Positions 3,185 to 49,777 of a DNA stretch of 49,777 nucleotides are shown one piece after another. Position numbers and translations under genes: made by a program. The DNA lies in the sequence record SRR20825010_719; one strand, 5' to 3'. Below the pieces are notes generated by a model that saw nothing but the letters and a program-made list of their open reading frames with translations, was not told where the DNA came from and did no database searches. Position 1 is the stretch's first letter; every line of letters begins with the position of its first letter.

Positions 3185-3265
3185 TCATTTTTAACAAATA
3201 ATAAAATCTAGAACTGAGACTAAAAGCCCTTAAAATCGGTATTCTTAAAGATTCTAAATTAATAC

Positions 3266-41651: not shown

Positions 41652-42014
41652 TTAATGACTTTCTTTCGGGTTTGGGAATAGATCGCTTTCATCTTCAGCT
41701 CTTTCCGTCAAACATTTAAAATCCTTCTCAACCAAAATACTCAATTTATCTCCATTTTCTAAGCTCAAATCTCCCTTGATTCCCACTTGATCTGAGGTAG
41801 CCCAGCCTTTGACTTCAGTTTCAGGGAGCGAAACGGTGATTACATTGTCGCTGAAAGTGCAACTTAGCTCAGCGGCAACGTTAATTTGATAGCTGAGGCC
41901 ATGACCATTGGGGAAGTCTAATTTGCTTAAGCAATCTAACCCTTCACCAAGCTGGTTCACTTCCGTTTGGGTGAGTCTGACTCGAATACTGTTTCCTTGA
42001 ATTCTTAGCTTCAT
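41652..42014 (-). CDS. Conserved hypothetical protein (DUF7009-like) within the FDH operon
   Basis: 120 aa; MKLRIQGNSIRVRL...LVEKDFKCL...DLFPNP; ATGA overlap with fdhD. Confidence 0.8.
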   Translation of the reverse strand: MKLRIQGNSIRVRLTQTEVNQLGEGLDCLSKLDFPNGHGLSYQINVAAELSCTFSDNVITVSLPETEVKGWATSDQVGIKGDLSLENGDKLSILVEKDFKCLTERAEDESDLFPNPKESH

Positions 42015-42853
42015 ACCATTACCCTTTCTTTTCCTGTATAAATATTGAATCGATCTGCTTTGAGAAATCCGACCAGTGTCATACCGAACTCTTCGGCTAG
42101 ATTTACGGCCAGACTTGAAGGGGCACCTACAGCTGCAATAATCTGAATACCAGCTCTTAAAGCCTTTTGGACTAGCTCAAAACTAATCCGCCCACTCAAG
42201 ACTAATATTGAATTTGAGAAGGGGAGACTTCCTTTAATTAACCCTGAACCGATGAGTTTGTCCAAGGCATTATGCCTGCCGACATCTTCATGCTGCACAA
42301 TGAGTTCGCCATGCACATCAAAGAGGCCAGCGGCATGAAGACCTCCTGTATGTTTAAATACATCTTGAGAGGCTCTCAGTCGATCGGGTAGGCTGAACAG
42401 CACTTCCTTTCCCACCTGAATGGGCGTTGAAGACAGGGCTTTGCAGCTTACCTTAATGGCATCGATGGATGCCTTTCCGCAGACGCCACAACTGGAAGTG
42501 GTGTAGAAGTTCCTTTTGAATTGCTCGTTGTCAATTTCCACGAATGGTTTTAATTCCACGCGCATCAGGTTCTCCATGCCTTCGTTTCTGCCCAAGTCTT
42601 CGCAATACTTGACACTGATGACCTCATCCATTGAATTGATGATGCCTTCGGTATAAAGAAAACCTAGGCAAAGTGTTTCATCGTTGCCAGGCGTACGCAT
42701 GGTGACCGACAAGCTGAATTGCTGACGATGATCCACAGGCCCATGTCCAAGACGGATTTCCAGTGGCTCTTCCGAAACCACCAAATCAGGTTTGGTTTCG
42801 GGAGCGTGCGGTCCGATGCGAAGAATTTCAACTGATTGAACAGGAATGGCCAT
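42011..42853 (-). CDS. fdhD: Formate dehydrogenase accessory sulfurtransferase
   Basis: EEPLEI, TMRTPG, SSCGVCG, TGGLHAA, EDVGRHNALDK, SGRISFELVQK. Confidence 0.96.
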   Translation of the reverse strand: MAIPVQSVEILRIGPHAPETKPDLVVSEEPLEIRLGHGPVDHRQQFSLSVTMRTPGNDETLCLGFLYTEGIINSMDEVISVKYCEDLGRNEGMENLMRVELKPFVEIDNEQFKRNFYTTSSCGVCGKASIDAIKVSCKALSSTPIQVGKEVLFSLPDRLRASQDVFKHTGGLHAAGLFDVHGELIVQHEDVGRHNALDKLIGSGLIKGSLPFSNSILVLSGRISFELVQKALRAGIQIIAAVGAPSSLAVNLAEEFGMTLVGFLKADRFNIYTGKERVMV

Positions 42854-42866
42854 GCTTTGATTCTTT

Positions 42867-44549
42867 TTAGGACAAGCCTGAAATTACACCATCATCATCA
42901 ATAGACATGCCTTCTGAGGCAGGAGTAGCAGGTAAGCCCGGCATCCGCATCATTTGTCCGAGAATTGGAATGATAAAGCCAGCCCCTGCCGCAAATTCAA
43001 ATTCTCTGACGCCTACATCAAAATTGGTGGGTCTGCCGCGGAGGAATTCATTATCGCTTAAAGATTTCTGCGTTTTGGCCATGCAAATTGGGAAATCGCC
43101 AAAGCCTAACTTTTCCATTTTGTTCATTTGAAGTTCAGCTTTCTTTGAGAAGTCTACTTTGTCGGCACCATAAATCTCTTTGGCGATGGTTTCAATTTTC
43201 TCTCGAATAGGGGACTTCCAGTCGTATAAAGGTTTGAAATTACTCTCATCAGCCTCGACCACTTTTACCAAAGCTTCCGCCAAGTTGGTCATTCCAGCGC
43301 CACCGTCTGCCCAGCCATCAGCTACCACGGCCTGAACGCCCATTGCTTCGCAGTGCTGCTGAATAAATTTCACTTCTTCCTCGGTGTCAGAAGGGAAGGC
43401 ATTGATGGTCACCAGCGGACTGATGCCGAACTTTTTAATGTTTTCTATGTGCTTGGCCAAGTTGGCAAAACCCTTCTCCACTCTTTCTACTGATGGCGTA
43501 TTGTATTCTTCTGGTTTAGCGCCTCCATGGTGTCTTAAGGCCCTAATCGTAGCAATGAGCACCACCGCTTTTGGTTTCAAACCGGCAGATACACATTTTA
43601 TATTCAAGAATTTCTCCGCGCCTAAATCTGCCCCGAAGCCTGCTTCTGTGACCACATAGTCAGCTAGCGAAAGGCCCATTTTAGTGCCAATGATGGTATT
43701 TGTGCCTTGTGCGATATTGGCAAAAGGCCCCCCATGTATAATGGCGGGGTTGCCTTCAAGGGTTTGCACCAAGTTGGGTTGAATGGCATCTTTGAGCAAA
43801 ATGGCCATGGCATTCTCAGCCTTCAAGTCTCTTGCAAAAACGGGCTGCTTGTCGAAGGTGTAGCCGACAAAGATACCTCCAAGTCTCTTTTTTAGGTCAG
43901 CGAAATTTTCAGACATGCACAAAATCGCCATGACTTCAGAAGCCGCAGTAATGTTGAATCCATCTTCTCTAGGAATGCCGTTGGCAGTTCCGCCCAAACC
44001 AATGGTGATTTGTCGAAGCGCCCTGTCATTCATGTCAATCACCCGTTTCCAAGCAATGGTTCTTGGGTCAATGTTCAGGTTGTTGCTACTGCTCTGAAGG
44101 TTGTTGTCAAGCAATGCCGAAAGAAGGTTGTTGGCTTTTTCAATGGCTGAAAAATCTCCCGTAAAGTGAAGGTTGATGTCCTCCATGGGAATTACTTGTG
44201 AATAACCGCCACCTGCGGCACCGCCTTTAATGCCGAATACAGGGCCTAATGAAGGTTCCCGAAGTACGACTATTGTTTTCTTTCCTATTTTATTGAGGCC
44301 TTCCGTAAGCCCAATTGACGTGGTGGTTTTTCCTTCTCCCGCGGGAGTTGGTGTCATGGCGGTCACAAGGATAAGATTACTTTTCTCGATTTTAGCTTGA
44401 TTGATAAGCCTGAGTGGAAGCTTCGCTTTGTATTTGCCATAATGCTCCAGGTCATCTTCTGAGAGGCCTATTTTGGCGGCAATTGAGTTAATATGTTTGA
44501 TGTCAGCGGCTTGGGCGATAGCAATATCGCTAAGGTGTTTTTTCTCCAT
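42867..44549 (-). CDS. fhs: Formate-tetrahydrofolate ligase
   Basis: TPAGEGKTT, LREPSLGP, KGGAAGGGY, INLHFTGD, HGGPFANIA, TEAGFGADLGAEKF, CMAKTQ. Confidence 0.97.
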   Translation of the reverse strand: MEKKHLSDIAIAQAADIKHINSIAAKIGLSEDDLEHYGKYKAKLPLRLINQAKIEKSNLILVTAMTPTPAGEGKTTTSIGLTEGLNKIGKKTIVVLREPSLGPVFGIKGGAAGGGYSQVIPMEDINLHFTGDFSAIEKANNLLSALLDNNLQSSSNNLNIDPRTIAWKRVIDMNDRALRQITIGLGGTANGIPREDGFNITAASEVMAILCMSENFADLKKRLGGIFVGYTFDKQPVFARDLKAENAMAILLKDAIQPNLVQTLEGNPAIIHGGPFANIAQGTNTIIGTKMGLSLADYVVTEAGFGADLGAEKFLNIKCVSAGLKPKAVVLIATIRALRHHGGAKPEEYNTPSVERVEKGFANLAKHIENIKKFGISPLVTINAFPSDTEEEVKFIQQHCEAMGVQAVVADGWADGGAGMTNLAEALVKVVEADESNFKPLYDWKSPIREKIETIAKEIYGADKVDFSKKAELQMNKMEKLGFGDFPICMAKTQKSLSDNEFLRGRPTNFDVGVREFEFAAGAGFIIPILGQMMRMPGLPATPASEGMSIDDDGVISGLS

Positions 44550-44599
44550 AGGTTAATTTGTCATTGTTCAAAAGTCAATGGGGATTTGGGGATTGACCT

Positions 44600-44611
44600 G
44601 CAAACGTTTGC
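44600..44611. promoter_or_regulatory. Perfect palindrome GCAAACGTTTGC, LacI/PurR-type operator upstream of fhs
   Basis: 12-bp palindrome with central CG, 50 bp upstream of the fhs ATG. Confidence 0.7.
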
Positions 44612-44734
44612 TTAATAGTATCCTAATTTAAGAATCACTATCGACTTATCAACTAATCTTTATTTTTTCGGCTTATTGAGGGGGGATTTCCAATCCTCAC
44701 GAAAATATGTTGACTGATGAAACACCCATTTATT

Positions 44735-44754
44735 CATAGCATATGTTAGCCTTC
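44735..44754 (-). mobile_element. Half attC-like site (R'' core plus putative L'') ending cassette 2
   Basis: Minus strand GAAGGCTAAC-atat-GCTATG; contains the gene's TAA stop; exact reverse complement of GTTAGCCTTC upstream of the same gene; matching distal half not found. Confidence 0.65.
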
Positions 44755-45624
44755 GTTACCTGGAATTTTCCGATAAGCTTCAACTTTTCTCAAATGCTTC
44801 GTCAGCACGTCTGTTGAAAGGTTTTTAGTTGTGATGGTCATTTTTTCACCCTCTTTTGTCATTTTCTCAATTACACAATATTCTACTTTTAAGAAGTTGT
44901 CTGCTTGGAAAGATGTTCTAATATATTCTGATGCTTCATTAAGGTCATCCAAATAAAAGTTGGAAACGAACATATCTAAATGAGTCACTATCGAGGCTAA
45001 CTTGCTTAATTCTTCTTTCAGATTAATTAAGGCACCTCTGTCAATTAGATCGCTTTTACATGGACCCCAAGAATCGTAGCTGTTAACAAGTGTTTCTGGG
45101 TCAAGTAAGAAGAGGCATGATCCGTCAGAGGATTCAGGTGATGAAGATGTTTGATCGGCATTGTACTCAATATGATATTTTGGGTATTCTCGATGTTGAG
45201 CATAGTTCCGGAGTTTTGAGAAAAAACGATATTCAAAAAATGTGTCAAAAAGTTCAGAGGTCTTTTCCTCAAAGGAATTCTTTTGAGCTGAATTCTTCCC
45301 AAACCGTCTATTCAATTGAGATGGTATATGGTCGGCATATGCTCTAAAAGAAGAAAGTAGGTTGCTTAAATGACGATTAATATTAAACGTAAGCTCATCA
45401 AATTGACTGGTTCTTGGAGTCATGTATAAAGGTGAAACATCCAAAGAAATTAGATATTCCATCAAGTCCGTAAAGTTGAAGAGAAATATCTTATGGAGAT
45501 TCTGACAATTACCGAATAGTTCTAGCTTTTCAGAGATTTCTAATAGCTTATTATATTCCTCTTGGGAAATCTCTCTCCCTGTTAAAACTTCTTTGTTAGT
45601 GACTGTTCCAAAAAATCTAGGCAT
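44746..45624 (-). CDS. HEPN-like hypothetical protein (gene cassette 2)
   Basis: 292 aa; YRFFSKLRNYAQH (RNxxxH); AT-rich; bracketed by 10-bp inverted cores. Confidence 0.7.
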   Translation of the reverse strand: MPRFFGTVTNKEVLTGREISQEEYNKLLEISEKLELFGNCQNLHKIFLFNFTDLMEYLISLDVSPLYMTPRTSQFDELTFNINRHLSNLLSSFRAYADHIPSQLNRRFGKNSAQKNSFEEKTSELFDTFFEYRFFSKLRNYAQHREYPKYHIEYNADQTSSSPESSDGSCLFLLDPETLVNSYDSWGPCKSDLIDRGALINLKEELSKLASIVTHLDMFVSNFYLDDLNEASEYIRTSFQADNFLKVEYCVIEKMTKEGEKMTITTKNLSTDVLTKHLRKVEAYRKIPGNEG

Positions 45625-45634
45625 AATGAGAGGT

Positions 45635-45753
45635 GAAGGCTAACGGCCAGCTAAAATTCGCAGGCTAGTTCTTTACTATTTAAAAGTATCTGATTCAAAT
45701 GCTCTTTGCAAATAACTTAAGTAAGTCGATTGGGCTTAGCATTTGTTACCAGC
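45635..45753 (-). mobile_element. attC-like recombination site (119 bp) between cassettes 1 and 2
   Basis: Minus strand GCTGGTAAC-aaat-GCTAAG ... TTTAGC-tggcc-GTTAGCCTTC, i.e. an R''-4nt-L'' ... L'-5nt-R' layout filling nearly the whole intergenic space. Confidence 0.75.
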
Positions 45754-45755
45754 TT

Positions 45756-46952
45756 TTATTTTACTTTCTGTAATTCATAATCATAGTGTTGAACTTTAGG
45801 TTTTGCTAATTTTAGATAGTGTCCTATCTGTTGGATTAGATTATTTTCATCTCTTTTTGGATCTGAAATAACAATCCAAATATTATGAATTAGAGCAGCT
45901 GCTTCTCTTAGCAACTGGTCAAGTTCTGTACATTCCAAAGGGGGAAACCCATTTTCCAATGGGTTGTTAATGAGAAAGTCAAAATCAATCTCTTTTGTAA
46001 GAATGTATTTTTTAAGATTACCGAAATTCCGATTCTGTTCAAACTGTTGATAGGCAGAACTTAATTCATCATAGAGCTTCTTAATGGACAGATATAATTC
46101 AGCAGCCATTTTAAGATATTCACCTTTAGAAAATTCATTTTCAGATACCGCAGTTGAATGTGTATCCCATTTTATGGCAATGTCATCTACCTCTTCATCA
46201 GCTTTGAATGGGTCAAGTTTGAATTCACAGTCTTCAACATTCCAAATTGCTCTACAAAAGGTTAGCCCTCGATTTACTTGTTGAATACTATCGTAGAAAA
46301 AAATGAATACTATTTCTGCTTCTTTACCTTCATACTGAGTTCTAGTTATTTCGTTTCGATGGTAGTCACTCCTTTTAAATTTTTCAATGATTTCAGGAAT
46401 CATTTTTTTCATAGCAATTCGACTTTTTGCATGAGTACCTTCCACCAAAATACTTACATCAACTCTTCTTGCAGCAACATGAGAAATGTCACCAACATGC
46501 ATTACAACATAGTGATTAGGGTTGTGGTATATTTTTTTCAGATCTTCCTTTGACCTCTCTAGTAATTGATTTTTTGGTATTTCAATTTTCCACCCTTTAC
46601 CTGTCTTCATCGTATTAGATGGGCTTACCAATTGCCAAAAAACACTATTGAAGTTTGGTTCATAGATTAGAATTAGTACTGGAAGAGATTGACTCAACCA
46701 ATATTCCAAATGCTTGTTTTCACCTCTGTAGATGTAACCAGTTTCCGTTTGTTCTTTAAAATAGCTGCTTCCGCTCTTGATTTGAATAGCAAATATTTGT
46801 CCTGTTGGAATCCCCTCATTCACTATTTCAACATGCATGTCTATTCCTACATCAGATATAGGTTGTTCCCTTTCAATCCAGCCAAATTCCTCCAAGAAAA
46901 TCAATGCTGATCGATGCAAGCCAATTCTCTCGGTGGGGTCAAAAAGTTTCAT
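45756..46952 (-). CDS. DUF4365-type PD-(D/E)xK nuclease-domain protein (gene cassette 1)
   Basis: N-terminal GWIEREQPISDVGIDMHVE...IFAIQIKSG...HLEYW...LPVLI; unknown C-terminal region. Confidence 0.8.
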   Translation of the reverse strand: MKLFDPTERIGLHRSALIFLEEFGWIEREQPISDVGIDMHVEIVNEGIPTGQIFAIQIKSGSSYFKEQTETGYIYRGENKHLEYWLSQSLPVLILIYEPNFNSVFWQLVSPSNTMKTGKGWKIEIPKNQLLERSKEDLKKIYHNPNHYVVMHVGDISHVAARRVDVSILVEGTHAKSRIAMKKMIPEIIEKFKRSDYHRNEITRTQYEGKEAEIVFIFFYDSIQQVNRGLTFCRAIWNVEDCEFKLDPFKADEEVDDIAIKWDTHSTAVSENEFSKGEYLKMAAELYLSIKKLYDELSSAYQQFEQNRNFGNLKKYILTKEIDFDFLINNPLENGFPPLECTELDQLLREAAALIHNIWIVISDPKRDENNLIQQIGHYLKLAKPKVQHYDYELQKVK

Positions 46953-46973
46953 AAGTTAAGGTTTGCAGATATT

Positions 46974-47020
46974 GCTGGTAACGTTATATATCCACCACAT
47001 TTGTAGCGCATACATCTCCT
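46974..47020 (-). mobile_element. Putative attI-like site at the head of the array
   Basis: Minus strand ...GGAGATGTATGCGCTACAAATGTGGTGGATATATAAC|GTTACCAGC; GTT core complementary to R'' of cassette 1, no attC partner arm upstream, about 90 bp downstream of the integrase remnant. Confidence 0.55.
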
Positions 47021-47031
47021 GTAATTTATTA

Positions 47032-47076
47032 AAACTTCCTTATCGCATCCAAATATTGGTCGCTATAAGGAAGTTT
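47032..47076. repeat. 12-bp inverted repeat / hairpin directly after the integrase remnant stop
   Basis: AAACTTCCTTAT (47032-47043) and ATAAGGAAGTTT (47065-47076) with an inner CCAA-ata-TTGG. Confidence 0.75.
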
Positions 47077-47158
47077 ATTGAAGGTTTATTTTGTCTAATG
47101 GTGATTTTATATTTCCCCAACCCTTATGAGTTACATGAGCATGCCTCAAAGTCTCGGG
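47075..47158 (-). pseudogene. 3' remnant of an integron-integrase-like tyrosine recombinase
   Basis: Manual translation PETLRHAHVTHKGWGNIKSPLDKINLQ*; resembles the TxxYTHV...(I/V)xSPLD C-terminus of IntI-like integrases; in-frame TAG immediately upstream. Confidence 0.7.
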
Positions 47159-47218
47159 CTAGGGATGCAACAGCCAACGAAAATTATTAGGGGTAGGGAA
47201 GAGTGTTGTTTTTATGTG

Positions 47219-47249
47219 GCTTGTTGGTTAAGAATACCAAGAAGGGCGG
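47219..47249. repeat. REP-like hairpin, degenerate copy
   Basis: GCTTGTTGGTTAAGAATACCAAGAAGGGCGG, similar to 48081-48110; 10 bp after the stop of the XRE gene. Confidence 0.7.
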
Positions 47250-47259
47250 GCCAGTTGTT

Positions 47260-47925
47260 TCAGAAGTTAAATGAACGTTCCTGTTTTTTCATTCTCATAT
47301 CCATTATGATTCCAATTCCGATGAATACTAAGGCCGCTGAAACCACACCAATTTTAATACTATAGTCTATGTTCTTTTGAACAGTAAAGCCAATAGCGAA
47401 TGACAGTCCAAAACTGGCTGCCCAAGTGGTATAATAATTATTGGGCACGAAATGTAATTTGTTTTTCAAGTACTTTTTAAACTTCGCGAGCTTCTGTTTA
47501 AACATCTCATTGCTAAATGAGGGTATTTTTTCGAGTTCTAAATACTGAATGTAACTTTCAATTCCTTCCATCTGCTCAGCACTTAAATCCTTTTCTTTTA
47601 GCTTCTGCAAAAGGCCTATGAATTTTTCAAATGTTTGGATTTCCGATTTCTCATTGGTCTTTGAAAGTTGCTTTTTAAGGAAAATTATAGTGGCCTTTAA
47701 ATCGGTGGTTTCCGTAATTAAGTTTGGTCCGATTAATTCTGTCAATTCAACATCTAAGGCGATTGCTATTCTTTTAATCGTTTCTCCTGTTGGTTCCGAT
47801 TCATTGTTTTCAATTCTTTGGATTGTCCTCAAACCTACTCGTGATTCTTCAGCTAAGTATTCTTGAGACATTCCTCTAACTCCTCTTAACTGCTTCAGTT
47901 TTTTTGCTAAATCTTGTGTTTCCAT
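47260..47925 (-). CDS. XRE-family HTH regulator with two C-terminal TM helices
   Basis: LKQLR..RGMSQEYLAEES.VGLRTIQRIENNESEP; hydrophobic C-terminus; ATG at 47925 preferred because a TACTTTTG -7 element lies at 47949-47956. Confidence 0.85.
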   Translation of the reverse strand: METQDLAKKLKQLRGVRGMSQEYLAEESRVGLRTIQRIENNESEPTGETIKRIAIALDVELTELIGPNLITETTDLKATIIFLKKQLSKTNEKSEIQTFEKFIGLLQKLKEKDLSAEQMEGIESYIQYLELEKIPSFSNEMFKQKLAKFKKYLKNKLHFVPNNYYTTWAASFGLSFAIGFTVQKNIDYSIKIGVVSAALVFIGIGIIMDMRMKKQERSFNF

Positions 47926-47948
47926 TTCAATGTTATTTATTGTTTCAG

Positions 47949-48008
47949 CAAAAGTAGATCGGAAACATATTTGCTGGTTACGCCAAGTTGACGTCATCTT
48001 TACGCCAA
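47949..48008 (-). promoter_or_regulatory. Promoter (-7 TACTTTTG) with upstream direct-repeat operator-like sites
   Basis: TTGGCGTAA repeated at 47978-47986 and 48000-48008 (22-bp spacing) with TGACGTCA between them. Confidence 0.55.
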
Positions 48009-48080
48009 TTGGTTACAACGTTGGCTAGCGCTCACTTTAAAGTTAATTGTTTAGGGATAACCTGCCTAGTGCTGCTATTT

Positions 48081-48110
48081 GCTTGTTGGTGAAAACACCA
48101 ACAAGGGCGG
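48081..48110. repeat. REP-like hairpin, intact copy
   Basis: G-CTTGTTGGTG-aaaa-CACCAACAAG-GGCGG: perfect 10-bp stem, 20 bp after the serine hydrolase stop. Confidence 0.75.
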
Positions 48111-48130
48111 CTGGGTGGAGGGATTACATT

Positions 48131-49168
48131 TTATGAGTCTTTTCCACGCCTCAGTATTTTTACTATTCGAGCATGTATAATGTCCGCTAAATTCCAGTTG
48201 TATAATTTCGGGTCAGTGGTGTTTGTAAATTGAATCACCACCGCATCGATGTCTTTGTGGTATTTGGCAATACTCTGATAGCCAGGGACCCATCCCTTAT
48301 GCTCATACTCGTAAATGGATGAATAGATGTCTTGCTCTCCTTCATCAAACAATGACCCATCGTTGAGTGCCCTCAAGAAAATACCCACATCCTGCGCTGA
48401 AGCCAACATTCCTTGTTTGTCGGTCTTTAAATCAAAGGGATGGCCGACATGATAACCACTCATTACATCGTCTATATTCACATCCTCCACAGAAGCAAAA
48501 GTGTTTTTGAGTTGAAGTCGGTTGAGGATTTCTTCCTGAATGAATTGAAAATGAGGGTAGCCTAGCACTTTATCCATGATTTTGGCAAGCAATAAATAAT
48601 TGGTATTGCTGTATTCATAGTCCTTATCGGGTTTGAAATTGGCGGGCTTACCAAGTACTAATTCGAGGTTTTCTTTGCTGCTTTCTTTTGGAGCAGACCA
48701 ATAATCTGGTGTGTCTGTATAATTGGGAATGCCACTTCTGTGCTGCACCATCATCCTCAAGGTGATCTTGTCCGCGTTTTCGATGCCGCCTACAAGTGCT
48801 GGAAGGTAGTCAGCTAGCGTTTTATCCAACGACAAACGTCCGTCAGCCACAAGTTTTGAGATGGACACTGCGGTATATAGCTTGCTCACACTGGCGAGTT
48901 TGAATAAGGCCTGTGGGTTGGCAGGGATTTTTTTCTCTCTATCATGCCAGCCAGCTGCATAAAATGCTGGTGCTTTGCCTGCTTCGTCTACATAGACAAT
49001 TATGCCTTCGAAATCATAATCAAGGGCTTCGTTTACTTGTTCTTGAACGGTATCTGGGACAGGTAGGATCCAAGCCCAAACTAAAATCCAAGGCACGAAA
49101 AACAAAGAGACTATGCTGGCAGTAATCAGGGCTATTTTGAAAATTTGCTTGTTCTTTTTTTTCGTCAT
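48131..49168 (-). CDS. Serine hydrolase, beta-lactamase class C / DD-peptidase family
   Basis: SxxK (FKLASVSK), HRSGI, YxN (YEYSNTNY), HKG; N-terminal membrane anchor. Confidence 0.9.
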   Translation of the reverse strand: MTKKKNKQIFKIALITASIVSLFFVPWILVWAWILPVPDTVQEQVNEALDYDFEGIIVYVDEAGKAPAFYAAGWHDREKKIPANPQALFKLASVSKLYTAVSISKLVADGRLSLDKTLADYLPALVGGIENADKITLRMMVQHRSGIPNYTDTPDYWSAPKESSKENLELVLGKPANFKPDKDYEYSNTNYLLLAKIMDKVLGYPHFQFIQEEILNRLQLKNTFASVEDVNIDDVMSGYHVGHPFDLKTDKQGMLASAQDVGIFLRALNDGSLFDEGEQDIYSSIYEYEHKGWVPGYQSIAKYHKDIDAVVIQFTNTTDPKLYNWNLADIIHARIVKILRRGKDS

Positions 49169-49229
49169 GCTATTTCAGGTTGGTTTTATTAGGGTGGATG
49201 TAAGGGTGAGTATTTGGTTTACCAGCTTT

Positions 49230-49664
49230 TTACAACTTTATCCAATCCAGTTCAACTAATATTTCAAAATCGCCTTGTTTCATTATTGGGGTTTGAAATG
49301 ATAGCGTTTTATCATTCATTTGAAATGTCCTGTAGTGTTCTTTGTTTTTCCAATTAGGCAATAGAGAAGTAATTACTTCAACATAGATTCTGTCGTTTTC
49401 TATTTTCCATTTCCCTGCATAGGACAGATATGTTTCAATGGCATTAATTTTTTCTTCCTCAGACGACATTTGCAGTGATTCGATCTCAAAGTTGATTCTG
49501 TTGTCTGTCATTATTGATACAGACATAAATCCATCAGCACTAAAAATTAAAATTCCGATGGGTGCTTTTCCATAAGGGAAAATAGATTTGTTTACCGTCA
49601 AATTTTTCAATTCAAAATTATTCAGCTTCCAACTTCCGATTATTTGCTGTTGAGGAGTGCTCAT
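49230..49664 (-). CDS. Lipocalin-like domain protein
   Basis: IIGSWKL, PYGKAPIGILIFSADGFMSV, SYAGKW. Confidence 0.8.
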   Translation of the reverse strand: MSTPQQQIIGSWKLNNFELKNLTVNKSIFPYGKAPIGILIFSADGFMSVSIMTDNRINFEIESLQMSSEEEKINAIETYLSYAGKWKIENDRIYVEVITSLLPNWKNKEHYRTFQMNDKTLSFQTPIMKQGDFEILVELDWIKL

Positions 49665-49777
49665 TGATTCTGTTTTAAATTTGGCCAGAACGCCTATTTT
49701 ACAAAAAGTGAGAGATGACTAGTCACATAAAAGAATGTCAAGCTCAATTTAAAGTTAAGCCTTTAGTAATAAATGTC

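Follow-up and report, generated by a model that had tools for sequence, protein, structure and literature searches.

Integrons combine a tyrosine recombinase gene with an adjacent docking site and co-oriented cassettes of one or two genes, mostly with unknown cargo, in which every cassette has a hairpin site, a GTT crossover-type core and complementary cores specific to that cassette (PMC4889954). What sets the integrase, IntI, apart from all remaining tyrosine recombinases is an IntI-specific region close to patch III, which search programs require, and decayed copies with an integrase pseudogene account for 15 of the 279 attC-site clusters without an integron-integrase (CALINs) reported in the same work (PMC4889954). 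In the co-directional ('atypical') integrons of Treponema denticola and its relatives, intI is transcribed toward attI and the cassettes (PMC3607928), and Bacteroidota are counted in one preprint among the clades previously found without integrons (bioRxiv 10.1101/2024.07.02.601686). Here we describe a locus in sequence record SRR20825010_719, a stretch of 49,777 nt hereafter called the window, in which an islet at 44735–47158 is likely to be what decay has left of an integron-like platform for gene capture, of a Bacteroidota type and with two cassettes. Between them, the islet and the platforms of its relatives share the integron features listed above, the folding hairpin sites being those of the relatives and the integrase pseudogene that of the islet, and they differ in that the relatives' recombinase lacks the IntI-specific region near patch III and that the recombinase-end and docking-site module occurs in multiple copies.

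Read on the minus strand, the region consists of a helix-turn-helix (HTH) regulator gene, a hairpin resembling repetitive extragenic palindromes (REP-like hairpin), a recombinase stump, a second hairpin, a docking site, gene 1, an attC-like element (attC1), gene 2 and the conserved flank of fhs. The GC content of the islet is 35.0%, compared to 40.1% for the whole window.

Complementary cores bracket both genes of the islet

Each of the two genes lies between perfectly complementary cores, and the two pairs differ from one another. Gene 1 is preceded by a start (R'-like) core, GTTACCAGC (46974–46982, minus strand), and followed by an end (R''-like) core, GCTGGTAAC (45753–45745, minus strand). 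Similarly, gene 2 is preceded by GTTAGCCTTC (45644–45635, minus strand) and runs into GAAGGCTAAC (44754–44745, minus strand), which holds its stop codon. Both pairs open with GTTA and close with TAAC.

The pairs were assessed by a chance test in which each of the 40 long open reading frames (ORFs) of the window was examined for a perfect inverted repeat of at least 9 nt linking the 60 nt upstream of its start to the sequence around its stop (−15 to +30). Genes 1 and 2 were the only ORFs with such a pair, the others reaching 8 nt at most. When upstream and downstream flanks were mismatched to form a null, 25 of 1560 combinations (1.6%) reached 9 nt and 10 of 1560 (0.64%) reached 10 nt. Repeats of 9–10 nt are common as such, because the 3-kb region contains 57 inverted-repeat pairs of at least 9 nt; it is their placement at gene ends that is uncommon. 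This abundance is what could make the inverted cores products of chance and the recombinase remnant described below a chance ORF fragment. However, placement around two adjacent genes is unique among the 40, with a joint chance of ~1e-4 per gene pair, the same signature stands behind intact homologous platforms (L164, L165 and L085, below), and the DNA of the remnant and docking site aligns with one such platform, that of G674, at a z score of ~14. Already contradicted by the chance test, L164, L165 and the DNA alignment, an origin by chance is scarcely credible.

A recombinase stump and a docking site precede the first cassette

The 3' end of a tyrosine recombinase ('integrase') gene is located upstream of gene 1 (47078–47227, minus strand; ~45 codons). 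Its translation reads ...RWLLHP-stop-PETLRHAHVTHKGWGNIKSPLDKINLQ-stop, the ORF fragment finishing with ...THKGWGNIKSPLDKINLQ and a stop codon at 47078. In addition to the in-frame stop, the remnant has CAT (His, 47143–47141) at the position of the catalytic tyrosine, which is Tyr in intact relatives. Protein alignment of THKGWGNIKSPLDKINL from the remnant with THKGWEKIQSPLDKIEL from the intact enzyme of G674 revealed 13 identical residues out of 17. Directly 3' of the remnant stop lies a hairpin (47032–47076, minus strand) with 21-nt arms at 47032–47052 and 47056–47076 that are 86% complementary; its folding energy of −18.5 kcal/mol corresponds to a z score of −4.8, and none of 200 shuffles was equally good. 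The hairpin probably terminates transcription of the recombinase gene or else belongs to the docking site.

The attI-like docking site (46980–47031, minus strand) consists of TATGCGCTACAAATGTGGTGGATATATAAC immediately followed by GTT, the same motif being found behind intact integrases, and the crossover would fall between G 46982 and T 46981. Local DNA alignment of the remnant, hairpin and site together gave a score of 119 with the G674 platform and 72 with that of G602, compared to 35 ± 6 for shuffles. Across the whole window, the remnant is the sole match to an IntI profile, and the ORF list contains no intact recombinase within 42000–49777. The initial annotation of this DNA, made from the letters alone, had proposed a remnant, a hairpin, a GTT core and four cores forming a separate, differing pair for each gene; all of these elements are present, the cores at the coordinates that it had given.

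Intact platforms stand in related genomes

Relatives were sought by comparing 20 kb of the DNA with 401 genomes of the order, and three emerged, namely G602 (94%), G674 (92%) and G718 (84%). The initial annotation had suggested a search for full-length integrases that share the remnant and its downstream motif but carry different cassettes, and two such loci were found, G602:C4 (L164) and G674:C2 (L165). In L164, an intact 353-residue tyrosine recombinase (L164:7125–8183) with the C-terminus ...EIYTHITHIGWKRIKSPLDELDI is followed by a hairpin, then by a site, TATACGCCACAAACGTGACTGATACATAAC, that abuts the GTT of GTTGTGGTG, and then by three cassettes. All three are enclosed by perfect 9–10-nt pairs of their own, namely GTTGTGGTG/CACCACAAC, GTTGTAGCAC/GTGCTACAAC and GTTGTAGCCA/TGGCTACAAC; their attC sites measure about 200, about 195 and 56 nt, and none of the five cassette ORFs matched a Pfam family. 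In L165, a 355-residue recombinase with the C-terminus ...EIYTHITHKGWEKIQSPLDKIELNM is followed by a hairpin, the site GTGCATAAAAGTGCACGTTATATAAC running into GTT (...GTGCACGTTATATAAC directly before GTTGTAAGC), one cassette, the end core GCTTACAAC and a 200-nt attC. The single cassette again has its own perfect pair, of 9 nt (GTTGTAAGC/GCTTACAAC). The docking motif common to both intact integrases is ...ACAAAYGTG...ATAYATAAC followed by GTT. On the bottom strand, the attC sites of the two loci (n = 4) fold end to end, with z scores of −4.7, −9.2, −2.4 and −6.0.

A third locus, L085 from a Saprospiraceae metagenome-assembled genome (MAG; G001), shows an enzyme of the same kind, a hairpin, ACAA joined to GTTATACAC, a cassette and GTGTATAAC. 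In the window remnant, L164, L165 and L085 alike, the recombinase is oriented toward the site and the cassettes. Among 263 genes in the relatives' loci, eight have a GTT.../...AAC pair of at least 8 nt, compared to 0.39% in the null.

These anatomies suggest how a working platform would operate. The gene for a recombinase of 353–355 residues would be transcribed toward a docking site made up of the hairpin and the common motif ...ACAAAYGTG...ATAYATAAC before GTT, and circular cassettes of one or two genes would enter by a crossover at G↓TT, so that each cassette would start with TT and a few bases of its own site. Once inserted, a cassette would close with its complementary ...AAC core, and a hairpin-forming attC would come next. 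What the data show is the anatomy, the homology to intact platforms and the loss of similarity at GTT; we infer that the recombinase catalyses these insertions and that it does so on folded single strands, and likewise where cassette transcription originates and what the two genes of the islet do. In the window, the two cassettes behind the site would be a DUF4365/DREN-type nuclease fusion and a helical protein.

Two further features of L164 were observed. Behind its third cassette (L164:10763–11266), the 56-nt attC is followed by a copy of the recombinase unit from which an internal part is deleted. This copy lies 3 kb behind the intact gene and joins the upstream region to the last ~70 nt of the gene, the hairpin and a site, ...ACATAAC, that abuts GTTGTAACCA; past it come ordinary-looking genes, including a TPR-HTH regulator and an MFS transporter. 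Directly upstream of the intact recombinase lies a gene for an IS200-like Y1 transposase (PF01797; L164:6456–6890), which might be a REP-associated enzyme.

The recombinase family lacks the IntI-specific region

Alignment of the three short recombinases (G602, G674 and G001) with seven TIGR02249-positive IntI proteins showed that some 40 residues are missing from the short enzymes exactly where the IntI-specific region would lie, and that they instead have an N-terminal extension of ~80 residues. The G602 enzyme scored 209.6 bits against TIGR02249 (cut-off 265) and was unmatched at profile positions 181–240, and none of the four genomes G602, G674, G718 and G756 exceeded the cut-off. The G602 enzyme scored 224 bits against NF040815 ('site-specific tyrosine recombinase/integron integrase'; cut-off 220). 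It resembles Xer/dif-type recombinases in its NF040815 score and in having homologues named XerD, but differs from them in that it adjoins cassette arrays with hairpin sites and in that its scores against the XerC and XerD models (175–185 bits) are far under their cut-offs of 329.6 and 335. Homologues of the recombinase abound: at E ≤ 0.001, 7993 of the 7999 candidates that were scored qualified, and they are annotated as XerD or 'integron integrase', as in Roseivirga and Algoriphagus. Because the IntI-specific insertion is missing, this recombinase family is not IntI, and we therefore refer to the platform as integron-like and not as a canonical integron. With respect to the features by which integrons are recognised, the intact homologues lack the IntI-specific region (intI_Cterm; TIGR02249), while an attI-like site beside the gene, with its putative crossover, and co-oriented ORFs with core pairs of their own are present. 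The attC hairpins fold end to end in the relatives' arrays; in the window, the cores are in place, but attC1 does not fold (z score −0.81) and the second site (attC2) is truncated.

As a positive control, 401 genomes were sampled from the phylum to which the Saprospiraceae MAG belongs, and in 113 of them TIGR02249 exceeded its cut-off, a frequency that sits oddly with the placing of Bacteroidota among clades in which integrons had previously not been found (bioRxiv 10.1101/2024.07.02.601686). Thirty of these true intI loci were fetched (L089–L118), many of them close to the end of a contig. A conserved co-directional stretch ending in ...TTGTT follows the intI stop in 11 of the 30. At L127, co-directionally behind a true intI, four successive cassettes each have a perfect 9–11-nt GTTA.../...TAAC pair of their own (GTTATAAGG/CCTTATAAC, GTTATGCATTA/TAATGCATAAC, GTTATATGGCT/AGCCATATAAC and GTTATACGTAT/ATACGTATAAC). 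It follows from this control that the core-pair signature is the look of real cassettes and that the co-directional layout is ordinary in the phylum. The initial annotation had described the islet as a co-directional integron-like platform with a lost integrase, which is supported; the co-directional layout that it had called non-canonical is not new, being already described for Treponema (PMC3607928) and recurring at the 11 intI loci above. The Treponema integrons differ in that their intI belongs to the integron-integrase family (PMC3607928) and in that they occur in another phylum, whereas the short-recombinase family described here lacks the IntI insertion. We found no literature on Bacteroidota cassette arrays that depend on a recombinase lacking the IntI region, in a search that left supplementary phylum tables and most subscription journals outside.

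The frequency of true intI in the phylum, together with the co-directional GTT-ending site downstream of intI at 11 of 30 loci, raises the alternative that the islet is a decayed canonical integron that once had a true IntI, complete with the IntI-specific domain. Alignment of the remnant to IntI C-termini needs no gaps (at best 50% over 22 residues), and the remnant is too short to show the insertion as present or absent, the IntI-specific region lying outside the stretch that the window retains. However, the remnant is clearly closer to the short recombinases of the relatives, with which it shares TH.GW..I.SPLDKI.L (13 of 17 residues, among them the uncommon GW), and the downstream hairpin and site match the short-recombinase platforms in their DNA. 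Those platforms' enzymes lack the ~40 residues of the IntI region, the G602 score is 209.6 bits against a cut-off of 265, and none of the four genomes passes TIGR02249. We consider descent from a canonical integron very unlikely.

The attC-like sites and the junction with the fhs flank

The element between the two genes, attC1, spans 119 nt from GCTGGTAAC to GTTAGCCTTC (45635–45753, minus strand) and has a conserved 5' half and a degenerate 3' arm. In G602, an attC located behind a 520-aa gene of no relation (L153:7797–7877) shares 82% identity with its first 81 nt. This copy has 17-nt complementary arms, a z score of −2.25 and its own pair, GTTACAAGGC/GCCTTGTAAC. The truncated attC2 (44686–44754, minus strand) begins with the end core GAAGGCTAAC, and its next bases, TAACATATGCTATG, correspond to TAACAAATGCTAAG in attC1. 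It has no 3' half, and GTT is missing where it meets the conserved flank of fhs. Similarity to relatives resumes ~70 nt past the core, at 44685 in G602, 44683 in G674 and 44684 in a marine-metagenome contig.

The half attC that the initial annotation had placed after gene 2 is thus delimited by three relatives. Its 119-bp attC-like element fared less evenly, being present, with a 5' half that recurs in L153, while showing no hairpin fold. Two other candidates were set aside. Folded in its circular-cassette form, attC1 pairs at its ends but has a multi-branched interior and a z score of about −2.3, which was unconvincing. An end of attC2 at the GTT of 44605–44603 was dropped, as the similarity of the relatives is already back at 44685. 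Rfam gave no matches at E ≤ 1 in 44400–48200. A CALIN comprises at least two attC sites and has no integrase gene closer than 4 kb, and the window has one degenerate and one truncated site. Joints between cassette cores were absent from the contigs of four sequencing runs, which are unable to show rare excision circles.

We regard the platform as dead because its recombinase is reduced to ~45 codons with a stop and His in place of Tyr, attC1 has lost its 3' arm and attC2 is cut ~70 nt past the core; genes 1 and 2 would therefore now be fixed.

The module is a dispersed repeat

Several observations weigh against reading the islet as a capture platform. The attC1 of the window does not fold as a single hairpin (z scores of −1.65, −0.53 and −0.81, with no end-to-end pairs) and, taken alone, would not pass as an attC. 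It resembles attC2 solely in the first 14 nt (12 of 14), and the global alignment of the two scores 79 compared to 73 ± 6 for shuffles, i.e. no better. When the six-frame pieces of the whole window were compared with a profile of 30 IntI proteins, the remnant ranked first, but weakly (E 0.085), and its 27-aa piece matched no Pfam and no NCBIfam family. At the fhs locus, the islet was moved or lost as a block by another process, because the breaks fall at the REP-like hairpin and at 44684/5 and not at the GTT cores.

In addition, the module formed by the REP-like hairpin, remnant, hairpin and site is a dispersed repeat in the relatives, with 18 matches at E ≤ 1e-4 in G602, 27 in G674 and 6 in G718, REP-only matches included. 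The hairpin-plus-site part gave 36 BLAST matches in the fetched loci, of which 17 have GTT at the projected junction. None of the genes behind these 17 copies has a perfect complementary downstream core of at least 8 nt; a core with at most two mismatches in 11 was found for 2 of 13 orphan-site genes, against a null of about 1.5%. One of these loci also bears on the window cores. In L168 (G602:C2:66500–72800), the site is followed, at a junction near 3193, by GTTACCAGCAG, whose first 10 nt (GTTACCAGCA) are as in the window, while the gene behind it is a different one, DUF4348, with an end that carries CTACTGTTAAC, complementary at 9 of 11 nt. Because L168 has the same first 10 nt, part of a core of the GTTACCAGC type may belong to the site and not to the cassette.

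Similarity among the 17 copies ends at ...AAC before GTT, and a metagenome contig (X2) likewise covers 46982–47248 and no further. The initial annotation had suggested comparing strains for precise gene gain or loss at G↓TT; the end of similarity in the 17 copies and this contig is in favour, whereas the differences at the fhs locus break elsewhere. The genes behind the site copies are mutually unrelated (3 similar pairs among 29 proteins), and 4 of 10 orphan-site genes matched a Pfam family (DUF4348, AAA/ABC-type ATPase, RhuM+Fic and DUF6090). Orthologous arrays of ~700-nt units were observed in L177 (G674:C23:30000–41000) and L178 (G718:C7:181000–188500). Each unit has a REP-like or other hairpin, a docking-site-like element ending ...ATAAC before GTT and an unrelated small ORF, and no complementary end cores were seen in these units.

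Dozens of dispersed copies in three relatives, most of them preceding genes without an end core, are what would be expected if the module were a non-autonomous mobile repeat, either like a miniature inverted-repeat transposable element (MITE) or of a REP type moved by a Y1 transposase, or else a terminator-promoter block, in each case unrelated to gene capture; the two genes would then be an ordinary small defence islet that lies by chance behind one copy. The IS200-like Y1 transposase gene directly upstream of the L164 integrase and the REP-like hairpins that flank the variable block at the fhs locus also favour such a repeat. So do the unit arrays, which G674 and G718 have in common (protein identities of 95% and 87%) and which, being orthologous, are not visibly dynamic. 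However, a repeat of this kind leaves unexplained the perfect cassette-specific pairs (two in the window, three in L164, one in L165 and one in L085), the hairpin attC sites between the cassette genes of L164 and L165, and why the module should have the 3' end of a recombinase that stands intact before the same site elsewhere. Neither terminal inverted repeats of the module nor target duplications were seen, although no systematic search was made. We therefore consider a repeat unrelated to capture improbable and retain the decayed capture platform as the likely reading.

The orphan copies could be docking sites that are empty or act as satellites, sites of the attI type within arrays, or a mobile repeat. 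A possible parallel, by analogy, is offered by the Delta-attI-type cassettes of class 1 and 2 mobile integrons, in which sites of the attI kind lie between array genes and are still used by the integrase (PMC12901181). Those integrons are clinical, have IntI1 and have shown activity (PMC12901181), whereas most orphan-site genes here have no matching end core. A bolder proposal, which we put forward tentatively and with more doubt than conviction, is a 'distributed integron' in a marine Cytophagales lineage, in which one intact short recombinase would serve many orphan docking sites in trans and the window islet would be a decayed satellite with two defence cassettes. The orphan sites, each a recombinase-gene stump plus a site, might then have spread chromosome-wide with the REP-like hairpin and allowed capture at many loci, a further step that we find equally doubtful.

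The cassettes carry a nuclease fusion and a helical protein

Gene 1 (45756–46952, minus strand) encodes 398 aa. Its N-terminus matched PF14280 (DUF4365) at 4.8e-33 (114.6 bits, cut-off 24.3), and PADLOC assigned it to Aga_REase (Argonaute-associated restriction endonuclease) at 7.3e-21. The structure model (predicted local distance difference test, pLDDT, 87.5) matched a SPARDA nuclease subunit in Foldseek with an E of 2e-9 over the first ~130–155 residues, and Holliday-junction resolvases with an E of about 5e-3. Seventy-two homologues were found (best 76%), and the ~250 C-terminal residues have no domain assignment. By these profile matches and the model, gene 1 is a DUF4365/DREN-type PD-(D/E)xK nuclease fusion, and it is a candidate for a defence effector that acts as a single protein. 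The single-gene anti-phage cassettes tested from the Vibrio cholerae chromosomal integron include a DUF4365 fusion, and this cassette, 'Divona', has a DUF4365 domain fused to others, as in gene 1 (bioRxiv 10.1101/2024.07.02.601686). The two differ in their C-terminal domains, gene 1 having no crr6 match in Pfam, and the defence role is a prediction for the gene described here.

Gene 2 (44746–45624, minus strand) encodes 292 aa that are modelled as a mostly helical bundle (pLDDT 80.9). It belongs to no known family and had no match in Pfam or PADLOC, and its model matched nothing in the PDB at E ≤ 0.001 in Foldseek. Seven homologues were found (best 83%), and the 401 genomes of the order contain three distant matches (28–32%). 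In VIA-align, HEPN toxins reached Z scores of 8.4 and 7.9, tied with generic four-helix bundles, while R139-x4-H144 is invariant in eight sequences. HEPN domains pair a four-helix bundle with a conserved R-x4-6-H motif, and the invariant R-x4-H makes HEPN a possible lead. Both genes are candidates for new single-gene defence systems; they are intact and probably in use, plausibly in anti-phage defence.

The fhs locus and neighbouring genes

The islet is absent at the fhs locus in G602, G674 and the marine-metagenome relative, and it is present with zero differences in two runs of cultured organisms (X3 and X4). Between fhs and the beta-lactamase-like gene, G602 has one opposite-strand gene between two REP-like hairpins, G674 has two stump modules and four small ORFs, and the marine metagenome (X1/X2, one sample) has a contig in which 44684 is linked to 48081 across 20 other letters. 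An fhs synteny search returned distant relatives only (≤77%), at whose loci neither of the two islet genes nor the HTH gene had a homologue; the close relatives came from the DNA comparison alone.

The REP-like hairpin that heads the remnant module, CCGCCCTTCTTGGT...ACCAACAAGCC (47218–47249, minus strand), has a second copy at 48081–48110. The element is a 30-nt hairpin, CCGCCCTTGTTGGTG-TTTT-CACCAACAAGC, located just past stop codons. Dozens of copies are present in G602 and G674, several of them 97–100% identical, and it is at this hairpin that the variable block breaks in G602, in G674 and in the metagenome.

Upstream of the module lies an HTH_3 regulator gene (47260–47997; Pfam HTH_3, 2e-14) which, together with an attC-3'-like end consisting of GCGCTAGCCAAC joined to GTTGTAACCA (48031–48010), occupies 47260–48031 on the minus strand. 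This end resembles the 3' end of an L164 attC, GCGCATAGCCAAACC joined to GTTGTAGCCA. The complement after the stop of the HTH gene amounts to just 5 nt (ACAAC). TAACCAACAA, located past the gene, was considered as an R'' core like those of L127 and was rejected, as it is part of the dispersed REP-like hairpin. The HTH gene is absent at the locus in G602 and G674 and ~97% identical in the marine-metagenome contig. It is possibly a third, older, upstream cassette. Further upstream, 31 nt at 49742–49772, before a 144-aa gene (49230–49664), are 81% identical to 48030–48060 in the attC-3'-like element. This likeness hints that the co-oriented genes up to the window end were once cassettes, yet they are conserved in G602, G674 and G718.

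Implications for gene capture in Bacteroidota

In three genomes, a recombinase without the IntI segment stands before a GTT site and cassettes that have hairpin sites and cores of their own. If the short recombinase moves these cassettes, capture on folded sites would need no IntI insertion, and standard tools would overlook a Bacteroidota gene-capture system. To this the window adds a dated fossil, in which the platform is dead while its cargo is intact, and the observation that the stumps of such platforms are dispersed repeats.

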